DNA of 64,000 nt. It comes from an uncultured Candidatus Rokubacteria bacterium. Lineage in GTDB: Bacteria; Methylomirabilota; Methylomirabilia; Rokubacteriales; CSP1-6. This document shows positions 3,366 through 7,765 of the stretch, piece after piece (position 1 is the first letter of the stretch; each line of letters opens with the position of its first letter). The stretch spans positions 32,001 to 96,000 of the forward strand of contig CAVYTA010000004.1 of assembly GCA_963771355.1 (NCBI GenBank), in the 5' to 3' direction. The translations under genes and the position numbers were made by a program. The notes beneath the pieces were generated by a model. The model was given only the letters and a program-made list of their open reading frames with translations. It ran no database searches and was not told the origin of the DNA.

Positions 3366-3707
3366 ATGAATCGGATACTCGCCCTGCTGATCACGCTCCT
3401 GTTCCTGGTCGGGTTCGGTGGGCTCCCGGACGCCTTCGCCCAGACCCCGCCCGCCAAGAGCGACGCCAAGCCCGCGGCCAAGCCGGCCACCGAGACCAAG
3501 AAGGACATGGGCAAGCATGAGCCCATCGATATCAACTCGGCATCCGCGGACGAGCTGAAGGGGGTGCCCGGTATCGGGGACGCCTACTCGAAGAAGATCA
3601 TCGACAACCGGCCGTACAAGCGGAAGGACGAGCTGGTCGCGAAGAAGGTCGTGCCGCAGGCCACCTACGACAAGATCAAGGACCACATCATTGCGAAGCA
3701 GAAGTAG
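3366..3707 (+). CDS. ComEA-like helix-hairpin-helix DNA-binding protein
   Basis: Signal peptide, IDINSASADELKGVPGIG HhH motif, RPY; AGGAGG RBS. Confidence 0.9.
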   Translation: MNRILALLITLLFLVGFGGLPDAFAQTPPAKSDAKPAAKPATETKKDMGKHEPIDINSASADELKGVPGIGDAYSKKIIDNRPYKRKDELVAKKVVPQATYDKIKDHIIAKQK

Positions 3708-3755
3708 CGGGGCGAACCCGAAGTAAGGGGGGCGAAGCCCAAGTAGCGGAAGCCG
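3702..3755. repeat. Three degenerate ~20-bp direct repeats with small GCGAA-loop hairpins between convergent genes
   Basis: AAGTAGCGGGGCGAACCCG / AAGTAAGGGGGGCGAAGCCC / AAGTAGCGGAAGCCG. Confidence 0.45.
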
Positions 3756-3776
3756 TCTCGCCGCCTGGCCGGTCGG

Positions 3777-5006
3777 TCAGCCCCCGGCCTTGGCGGCGGG
3801 CGCGCCCGCCTGGGCGGGCTGCCCATTGCCCGACCCCTCGGCGGCGCAGGCGTCGGCATGGCCCGCGCGGTGGATGGACAGGTCCTTGATGGTCGGGCTG
3901 GTCCCGCAGAGCGGGCAGTTCGGATCGCGCCGCAGCTTCACCTCGCGGAAGCGCATGCCGAGCGCGTCGTAGGTCATCAGCCGGCCGATCAGTGGCTCGC
4001 CGATTCCCAGCAGCACCTTGATCGCCTCGGTGGCCTGTACCACTCCGATGATGCCTGGGAGCACGCCCAGGACGCCGGCCTCGCTTCAGGAGGGCACCAG
4101 CCCCGGGGGGGGCGGGGTCGGATAGAGGCAGCGATAGCACGGCCCCTGATTCGGGGCGAAGACGCTGGCCATGCCCTCGAACTGGAAGATCGAGCCGTGG
4201 ATATTGGTCTTCCCCGCCAGATAGCACGCGTCGTTCATGAGATAGCGCGTGTCGAAGTTGTCCGAGCCGTCCACCACCAGGTCGTAGTCCTTGATGATGT
4301 CCATCACGTTGTCCACCTCGATGCGGGTGGGCAGCGGGATGACGTTCACGTCGGGATTCAACGCGCGAATGGCCTCCATGCCGGACTCGACCTTGGGGCG
4401 CCCGACGCTGGCGGTGGTGTGGAGGATCTGGCGCTGGAGATTCGACACGTCCACCACGTCCCCGTCCATGAGCCCGAGGGTGCCCACGCCGGCGGCGGCC
4501 AGGTAGAGCGCGGTCGGGGAGCCGAGACCGCCCGCGCCGATGAGCAGCACCTTGGAGCGGAGCAGCTTGCGCTGGCCCTTCTCGCCCACCTGCGGGAGGA
4601 GGAAGTGGCGGCTATAGCGCTGGATCTGCTCCGTGGTGAGCGGCTTGTCCTTGGCCACGGGCAGGCCGGACTGCGCCCACTTCTGGAAGCCGCCCTGCAG
4701 GTTGATGACGTTCTCGTAGCCAAGCTCCTTGAGCTGGCGTGCGGCGAGCATGGACCGCAGACCGGTCTGGCAGTAGAGCACGAGCGGGGTGGTGGGCTCG
4801 GGCGCCACGGTGCCGATGCGGAACTCGAGGAAGCCGCGGCTGATATTCGCCGCGTCCTCGATATGGCCGTCACGGTACTCGTCGGGATCCCGCACGTCCA
4901 CGACCACCACGGGCTCGCCGGCGTCGAGCCGGCGCTTGAGATCGGCCGGCCCCTGCTCGGGGACGACCTGGCGGGCCTCTGCCAGCATCTCCTTCAAGGT
5001 CTTCAT
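3777..5006 (-). CDS. moeB: Rhodanese-MoeB/ThiF adenylyltransferase (MoeZ-like), probable selenoprotein (Sec at TGA 4086-4088)
   Basis: Rhodanese CQTGLRS, RYSRH, GAGGLGS, SNLQRQ, CYRC, then PPPPGLVPS-TGA-SEAGVLGVLPGIIG in frame with ORF 3777-4064 (CPLC). Confidence 0.9.
4045..4078 (-). promoter_or_regulatory. Putative bacterial SECIS element
   Basis: CCTGGG-CGTGCT-CCCAGG stem-loop with loop starting 21 nt after the UGA, G in loop position 2, extendable lower stem CCGG/TCGG. Confidence 0.7.
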
Positions 5007-5124
5007 GCCGTAACTCCTCGTTTCTGTGACCGAGTGATGACTTCGTGCTCGTTGTTAAGATTACCGCTATTCCCGGTCGGATGCAGGGAGAATCCCGTCC
5101 CGGCTGTTCCCAGCGCGCCAAGAC

Positions 5125-6205: not shown

Positions 6206-6741
6206 TGAATCTCGGCGACGCCGCCAAGCGCGCGTACGCGCTGCAGGACTACTCGCCCTCGGCGGCCATCCCCGGTGTCGAGATCGTGGACCTCAAGCGC
6301 TTCGCCGACGACGGCGGGGCCCTCATCGAGCTGGGGCGGCTGACCGCGGGCGCCCACGCGGCCTTCCGCGGCTTCGAGGTCAAGCAGGTCAACTACACCG
6401 AGATGGATCCCGGCGTGATCAAGGCCTTCCATCTCCACCGCCGGCAGACCGACGTCTGGTTCGTCCCTCCGGGCGACCGCATGCTGCTGGTGCTGCTGGA
6501 CGCCCGTGCCGGCTCCCCCACCGAGAACGCGGCGCGCCGCCTCATCCTCGGCGATGCGTCGTCCCGGCTGGTGCGCATCCCGCCCGGGGTGGCCCACGGG
6601 GTGCGCAACCTCGCGAGCACGCGCGGCCGCATCATCTACTTCGTGGACACCCACTTCTCGCCGGATCCCGACACCTCCGACGAGGGCCGCCTGCCGTGGG
6701 ATCATGCCGGCGCCGATATCTGGGAGCCCGTGCGCGGCTGA
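6205..6741 (+). CDS. rmlC: dTDP-4-dehydrorhamnose 3,5-epimerase family protein
   Basis: KAFHLH, IPPGVAHG cupin motifs; coupled to rmlA. Confidence 0.85.
   Translation: MNLGDAAKRAYALQDYSPSAAIPGVEIVDLKRFADDGGALIELGRLTAGAHAAFRGFEVKQVNYTEMDPGVIKAFHLHRRQTDVWFVPPGDRMLLVLLDARAGSPTENAARRLILGDASSRLVRIPPGVAHGVRNLASTRGRIIYFVDTHFSPDPDTSDEGRLPWDHAGADIWEPVRG

Positions 6742-7765
<1,024 letters not shown>

Follow-up and report, generated by a model that had tools for sequence, protein, structure and literature searches.

Probable selenocysteine codon in a rhodanese-MoeB gene of an uncultured Rokubacteria bacterium

A rhodanese-MoeB gene of an uncultured Candidatus Rokubacteria bacterium is intact, and the single UGA codon within its frame very likely encodes selenocysteine (Sec). 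The predicted 409-residue enzyme likely loads sulfur onto ubiquitin-like carriers; we place the probability of this reading at about 90%. The gene lies in the window, by which we mean the whole 64,000-nucleotide stretch of DNA that was analysed. Judged from its sequence, it is a well-supported member of a family that was predicted in 2005 and is known by computation. The present analysis adds its context as an apparent sole activator of sulfur carriers and a predicted double-Sec variant in relatives. It also corrects annotation, in that the gene is whole and many database entries of close relatives are cut at 306 residues.

Sec-containing MoeB (“molybdopterin biosynthesis MoeB protein”) was predicted from the Sargasso Sea in 2005 on the basis of 11 sequences (PMC1088965) and has been a listed selenoprotein family since, as the initial annotation indicated. 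The Global Ocean Sampling (GOS) analysis of 2008 gives 19 sequences (PMC2398784), and later lists include MoeB with one Sec, for example MBT7809913.1 (PMC9312934, PMC13188914). Like the 2005 family, the window’s gene has a PF00899 / COG0476 domain with a Sec/Cys pair. The published proteins and the present one are alike in belonging to the MoeB/ThiF family, in having an in-frame UGA paired with the Cys of homologues and a SECIS-like hairpin downstream, and in being computational predictions; their Sec position is assumed to be identical to codon 307 here. They differ in that the published sequences come from marine metagenomes, whereas those described here belong to soil and groundwater Rokubacteria and are nearly fixed in one order. 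In addition, the portions of the published tables drawn on here give one Sec and no rhodanese fusion, whereas some of the present relatives have two UGAs. Among the matches listed in our literature searches there was no study of a Rokubacteria Sec rhodanese-MoeB or of a two-Sec adenylyltransferase. MoeB goes unmentioned in the main text of the BSepDB paper (PMC13326102), and the BSepDB database and supplements may list these genes.

Reading frame and codon 307 across relatives

The gene runs on the minus strand from window position 5006 to 3777 and translates into 409 codons; TGA occurs once inside the frame. This codon (4088-4086, codon 307) stands in the context PPPPGLVPS*SEAGVLGVLPG, and the terminal codon is also TGA. 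Open reading frame calling cuts the gene in two, 4086-5006 (306 residues) and 3777-4064 (95 residues), as described in the initial annotation, which left the minus strand unstated. The terminal TGA at 3777-3779 was considered as a recoded site and rejected; it is an ordinary stop, because relatives have TAG or TAA there. The two Zn-binding CxxC motifs flank codon 307, and read-through is therefore needed for a complete Zn site in one chain. The features of the gene, along with those of its relatives and candidate partners, are given in Table 1.

Table 1. Coordinates of the features described in the text (window positions, or locus handles for features of the wider genome and of relatives).
Feature	Position	Strand	Evidence
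Whole CDS, rhodanese + MoeB/ThiF adenylyltransferase, 409 aa with UGA read through	3777..5006	-	Translation; NF006444
Shine-Dalgarno-like GAGGAG, 7 nt upstream of ATG	5014..5019	-	Seen in sequence
Rhodanese domain, residues 20-112	4671..4949	-	Pfam PF00581, E 3.6e-21
Cys79 (TGC), predicted rhodanese active-site Cys, YCQTGLRS	4770..4772	-	Invariant in 30 aligned proteins
ThiF/MoeB adenylation domain, residues 131-365, includes UGA	3912..4616	-	PF00899, model 1-237/238, E 8e-85
ATP-binding P-loop GAGGLG, residues 157-162	4521..4538	-	Alignment-invariant; aligns with MoeB, ThiF, Uba4
First Zn-binding CxxC, CYRC 290-293, N-terminal to UGA	4128..4139	-	Alignments
In-frame UGA, codon 307, predicted Sec in crossover loop	4086..4088	-	Alignment; relatives’ codons
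Predicted SECIS hairpin, 6-bp stem, 6-nt loop CGUGCU	4054..4071	-	Folding, conservation
Second Zn-binding CxxC, CPLC 364-367, C-terminal to UGA	3906..3917	-	Alignments
ThiS/MoaD-like carriers (eight) and single JAMM protease	L187-L194, L211		
Relatives with TGA at the Cys79 position	L169:525-1754	-	
Further relatives with TGA at the Cys79 position	L164, L165, L166, L167, L168, L172, L174, L175, L180, L185, L186		

At 4086-4088, where the initial annotation proposed that raw reads be inspected, contigs of two public runs agree with the window. The contig of run X5 matches 3750-4199 with 0 differences, UGA site included, and that of run X11 matches 3933-4278 with 1 difference, away from the UGA site. 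The two runs belong to different studies, and either could be close to the source of the window. No long piece across the site is present among the matches listed for run X1. RNA run X15 covers about 4169-5039 only and is uninformative on read-through because its coverage misses the UGA.

Matches to the protein at E 1e-60 or better are present in 56 of 61 genomes. We read 130 loci, of which 113 are distinct; codon 307 is TGA in 109 of these, TGC in four, and TAA or TAG in none. The terminal stop of these same genes makes use of all three stop codons. These loci are related and the counts are therefore not independent. The exact pattern of UGA plus SECIS is found in 154 of the 183 genomes of the order and in none of 68 other genomes of the phylum; a genome without a match may be incomplete, or may have a Cys form or a hairpin that has diverged. 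Among the 120 database proteins listed, 46 are full-length with Cys and 74 stop before the motif, most of them at residue 306.

The four Cys genes (L051, L136, L138, L162) provide a natural contrast to the TGA genes. One sits in a genome where selA is retained and selB is cut by a contig end. Sec is thus dispensable, given that Cys forms exist in relatives and one occurs beside a retained selA. In a FastTree tree of 130 rows, with both sites masked and an arbitrary outgroup, Cys forms fall at five places among the Sec forms. This suggests repeated loss of Sec to Cys and carries little weight: several nodes are weak, and three of the five Cys placements are single database proteins known without their codons.

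Two irregularities lie close to the gene. The gap to a convergent helix-hairpin-helix gene (3707-3750) holds short tandem near-repeats, one copy of which is absent in a close relative. On the plus strand, a gene that we take to be rmlB-like (dTDP-glucose dehydratase-like; 6740-7765) is frameshifted near 6880, probably by an assembly indel; in this one gene checked, the earlier remark that other lesions in the window are indels holds. Recurring neighbours that could be named are an HtrA-like protease, a nucleotidyltransferase with rmlC, and glycosyltransferases, all functionally uninformative, and six of the 14 neighbour cluster representatives had no Pfam match.

Hairpin, selenium machinery and decoding of the UGA

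The hairpin CCTGGG-CGTGCT-CCCAGG noticed in the initial annotation was located at 4071-4054, its loop beginning, as claimed, at the 21st base after the UGA. The bacterial SECIS model, as set out in PMC13188914, has a loop of 3-9 nt with a G in the first two loop positions, a stem of 4-16 bp, a spacing of 16-37 nt from the UGA and an energy at or below -7.5 kcal/mol. Checked by hand, the window’s hairpin lies within these limits, with its 6-nt loop CGUGCU, 6 bp, 20 nt from the UGA and -9.2 kcal/mol. Compared with shuffled versions of this GC-rich sequence, the folding energy shows no excess stability (z of 0.26 to 1.08 over four segments), and another fold beats the hairpin in segments of 79 and 99 nt. 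As its energy is unremarkable, the case for the hairpin rests on conservation.

Conservation at the nucleotide level is strong. Codons +5 to +9 (GTC CTG GGC GTG CTC) are identical in 109/109 TGA genes, while no column is invariant among 89 control columns, which are conserved positions with four- or six-fold degeneracy and have a median entropy of 1.17 bits. The Pro codon at +10 is CCA in 98 genes and CCG in the remaining 11, with no other codon in use, so that a U-A or U-G pair is kept; at other conserved Pro columns, CCA accounts for 3.5%. The suggestion that A-ending codons are under selection is thus upheld for CCA, but not for GGA at +14 (29/109) or GTA at +16 (9/109). UGA and SECIS core are kept jointly in 109/109 TGA genes and in 0/4 Cys genes, in every one of which the stem is broken and the hairpin lost. 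Within the TGA genes the stem has one one-sided change and no two-sided compensatory change. This pattern points to selection on the sequence that is consistent with a stem, short of proof of pairing.

The genome, which is 99.8% complete, holds the full set of selA, selB, selC and selD that the initial annotation proposed to look for. SelA, SelB and SelD, at 555, 367 and 266 bits, each score above their curated cut-offs. The tRNA-Sec (69.1 bits, Rfam), likewise above its cut-off, has a TCA anticodon, is the only TCA-anticodon tRNA found, and adjoins selA and selB on contig C7; selD is on contig C4. SelD itself (L210, G000:C4:225335-226252) has Cys in its CGGCAAK motif and is therefore not a selenoprotein. 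The open frame around it has 817 residues, which suggests an N-terminal fusion.

Other UGA codons of the genome may be recoded as well. A codon-usage scan returned 81 TGAs flanked by coding-like sequence, 29 of them with a SECIS-like hairpin. Of 14 candidates picked by hand, 12 match redox families, and for eight the top match is a family whose name refers to a (seleno)protein or a UGC motif, mostly below the whole-protein cut-off. Their hairpins have similar spacing, starting 17-26 nt from the UGA. At least 12 further candidate selenoproteins (L196-L209, on contigs C1, C5, C6 and C7 of genome G000) were noted in this way, including Prx, AhpD/YciW, UGSC, WAxxUGC, DsbA-like and ArsC proteins. 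Two loci with an in-frame TGA and hairpin (L206, L209) lack an NCBIfam match and resemble, by eye, a CoA-transferase subunit and OsmC. The review literature already notes the Methylomirabilota as rich in selenoproteins.

Three other readings of the codon can be weighed against this evidence. That the UGA is a true stop, giving two chains of 306 and 95 residues, the latter from a GTG at 4064, is in keeping with the split made by ORF callers and with the 74 of 120 listed database homologues that terminate before the motif. A true stop would be expected to drift to TAA or TAG, however, and no locus of the 113 has done so; with two chains, the conserved Cys position would also be lost and the two CxxC halves of the Zn site would end up on different polypeptides, and the Cys homologues are single chains. 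We consider it very improbable. An assembly with at least one frameshift nearby might raise the suspicion of a sequencing error, or of a pseudogene carrying a nonsense mutation, yet two public runs have contigs with the TGA, 154 genomes share it, and the gene is the sole ThiF-family gene found in a nearly complete genome. Conservation across the order already refutes this explanation, and its probability is negligible. Decoding as Cys or Trp by another tRNA has a precedent of sorts in SelB-like systems that are reported to place Cys at UGA. Set against it are the lone TCA-anticodon tRNA, which scores as tRNA-Sec and adjoins selA and selB, and the fact that both this gene and its relatives also end in TGA as a normal stop; the chance that it applies here is very slight. 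Insertion of Sec at codon 307 is the reading that we retain.

Enzyme family, sulfur carriers and proposed mechanism

Domains and conservation support the earlier proposal of a 409-residue selenoenzyme that would combine an N-terminal Cys rhodanese with a Sec adenylyltransferase. The protein scores 537.6 bits with NF006444 (PRK08762, MoeB) over residues 4-375, above the equivalog cut-off of 449. This model likewise spans an N-terminal rhodanese and a MoeB domain, but its name bears no selenoprotein label. The sequence and fold features of MoeB/ThiF enzymes are present: the P-loop, two Zn-binding CxxC motifs and an E1-like fold. As first proposed, the UGA falls at the E1-like Cys; with residues counted along the printed alignments, codon 307 aligns with Cys187 of Escherichia coli MoeB and Cys184 of ThiF. 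In Chaetomium Uba4 the aligned residue is the Cys after the first CxxC, and PMC7527816 gives Cys202 as the catalytic crossover-loop residue of C. thermophilum Uba4.

E. coli MoeB and ThiF share the fold of the protein, its P-loop and paired CxxC motifs, but they lack a rhodanese, serve one pathway each and have Cys instead of Sec. Uba4 (yeast, Chaetomium; MOCS3 type) and mycobacterial MoeZR resemble it in fusing the adenylation domain to a rhodanese and in having a catalytic crossover-loop Cys at the equivalent position, and MoeZR serves several carriers. In Uba4 and MoeZ, by contrast, the rhodanese is C-terminal rather than N-terminal, and the residue is Cys rather than Sec. The score with the MoeZ model NF005902 (405.6 bits) is below the cut-off of 647. 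With its rhodanese at the N-terminus, the Rokubacteria enzyme thus falls outside the MoeZ/Uba4/MOCS3 group, though its working mode may be similar.

An alignment-based structure model reaches a pLDDT of 70.5, against only 31.6 for a single-sequence prediction. It superimposes on MoeB 1jw9 with a TM score of 0.91 by target length, and the range over MoeB 1jw9 and ThiF 1zud and 1zfn is 0.89-0.91 by target, at 41-44% identity. The pLDDT is below 50 at residues 306-313 and in the linker at 119-135. The predicted model confirms the MoeB fold; the geometry of the Sec loop, the linker and any contact between Cys79 and Sec307 are outside its reliable part.

The gene is the only PF00899 match in the 99.8% complete genome, and its product appears to be the bacterium’s only sulfur-carrier activator. 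A side observation on related genomes is that most of those in family f4 have a second, shorter MoeB/ThiF paralogue lacking the rhodanese, unlike the window’s genome. Eight ThiS-family proteins were matched by Pfam search, which was used in place of a motif script that recovered one of the eight. All have Gly-Gly, and seven have an extension or fused domain after it. The genome has one JAMM protease gene, arranged in a run Rrf2-PALP-carrier-JAMM. Four carriers have a telling context, namely ThiG, a MoaD-MoaE fusion, the PALP (cysteine-synthase-type) gene with Rrf2 and JAMM, and TtuA. Another PALP gene precedes the fifth carrier, and a molybdopterin-binding enzyme precedes the sixth; the other two have no informative neighbours. 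A single mycobacterial MoeZR serves both MoaD and CysO (PMC3227635). By analogy with that enzyme and its two carriers, we infer that the rhodanese-MoeB protein would activate most or all of the eight.

The proposed mechanism combines steps of unequal certainty. SelB with Sec-tRNA would almost certainly bind the hairpin and insert Sec307, as in the established bacterial pathway. From knowledge of the family, it is highly probable that JAMM would trim the carrier extensions and the MoeB domain would then adenylate the C-terminal Gly-Gly, to feed thiamine (ThiS-ThiG), molybdopterin (the MoaD-MoaE fusion), cysteine (a CysO-like carrier, by PALP and JAMM) and tRNA thiolation (a TtuB-like carrier, by TtuA). 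What follows has roughly an even chance of being correct: Sec307 would attack the acyl-adenylate to form a selenoester, which the persulfide of rhodanese Cys79 would attack in turn, to release the thiocarboxylated carrier. The model for this step is yeast Uba4, in which a thioester at C225 hands the carrier on to the persulfide of the rhodanese (PMC6007339); PMC7527816 likewise supports a thioester linking the two domains of Uba4. Elsewhere in the family, E. coli MoeB/MoaD is described as working without a thioester and the canonical Cys of archaeal UbaA is reported not to be a thioester site (both PMC6007339), while ThiF Cys184 forms an acyl-disulfide with ThiS (PMC12596934). Because of these other chemistries, the selenoester step is an analogy only. 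More tentatively, and at somewhat less than even odds, the carrier network of Rokubacteria may run through one selenium-dependent selenoester E1, which in a sub-clade of at least six genomes in five genera would have two Sec residues, each with its own SECIS.

Two alternatives concern what the selenium does. Sec may be inserted and yet form no selenoester, serving instead in a ThiF-like mixed acyl-selenenylsulfide or as a resolving, oxidation-resistant residue that clears stalled intermediates. The acyl-disulfide of ThiF and the thioester-free MoeB/MoaD both speak for this, as do the redox nature of the majority of the other UGA genes checked in the genome and the additional role of Uba4 Cys202 in resolving reactive intermediates in oxidative stress (PMC7527816); against it, the rhodanese-fused Uba4 uses a thioester at the equivalent position to join its two domains. 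We regard this as a serious contender, a little short of even odds. It is, on the other hand, quite unlikely that the enzyme makes a selenocarboxylate, putting selenium rather than sulfur on the carrier to supply a selenium-containing cofactor or nucleoside. The host is selenoprotein-rich and UGA occupies both catalytic positions in a sub-clade, but the identifiable carriers adjoin ordinary sulfur-pathway genes and no selenium gene is found among the nameable recurring neighbours. Sec is normally a catalytic residue rather than a donor. Sulfur loading by a Sec enzyme remains the preferred reading.

If the enzyme is the sole activator, thiamine, molybdopterin, cysteine and tRNA thiolation in common soil bacteria would be partly selenium-dependent. 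That nearly the whole order keeps a costly Sec codon at the position of MoeB Cys187 suggests a real job for this residue, although E. coli MoeB is described as thioester-free.

Relatives with a second UGA

The window’s own gene has TGC at Cys79, and a sub-clade of relatives has TGA at this codon. It was seen in three of the first 50 loci and, by pattern search, in six of 251 genomes of the phylum, across five genera. A metagenome scan for the pattern gave 17 matches, of which six (on six contigs) are genuine; 11 arose by chance in unrelated sequence and were discarded. The 12 sequences collected comprise 10 distinct ones, whose identity over a comparison of 81 codons is 80-99.6%. Seven stretches have both TGAs together (G014, G031, G032, G244, L172, L174, L180), and in G239 the two are on separate contigs.

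All 12 sequences have one 18-nt hairpin, with 7 bp, the loop GUCC, a spacing of 18 nt from the UGA and an energy of -9.3 kcal/mol. Six codons of this hairpin are invariant, compared with one of 27 control columns, and its core is present in none of 110 loci with Cys79. A search of five Cys79-TGA genomes for SelB gave a match in four; the exception is G014, at 98% completeness. With NF006444, a double-UGA relative reaches 512.3 bits, above the cut-off of 449. On these grounds, the form with both UGAs is predicted to be a double selenoprotein. Three rows of the tree have both UGAs; they cluster with two rows that have Cys79 (support 0.835), and gain and loss therefore cannot be ordered.

The predicted double-Sec form of MoeB is new here, in that it was not found in the selenoprotein tables or literature searched, in the parts that these covered; the BSepDB database and the supplements may list it. 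Together with the single-Sec and all-Cys forms, it makes up a ready series of natural variants that are 72-96% identical to the window’s protein. This series could be used to probe the residue at the E1 position of bacterial MoeB and the contribution of selenium.

Elsewhere in the window, at about 29480 on the plus strand (G000:C4:61480), another in-frame TGA stands between coding-like stretches (TFA*CCVVAL). The hairpin there is weak, and either a nonsense change or a boundary between two adjacent genes may account for the TGA.
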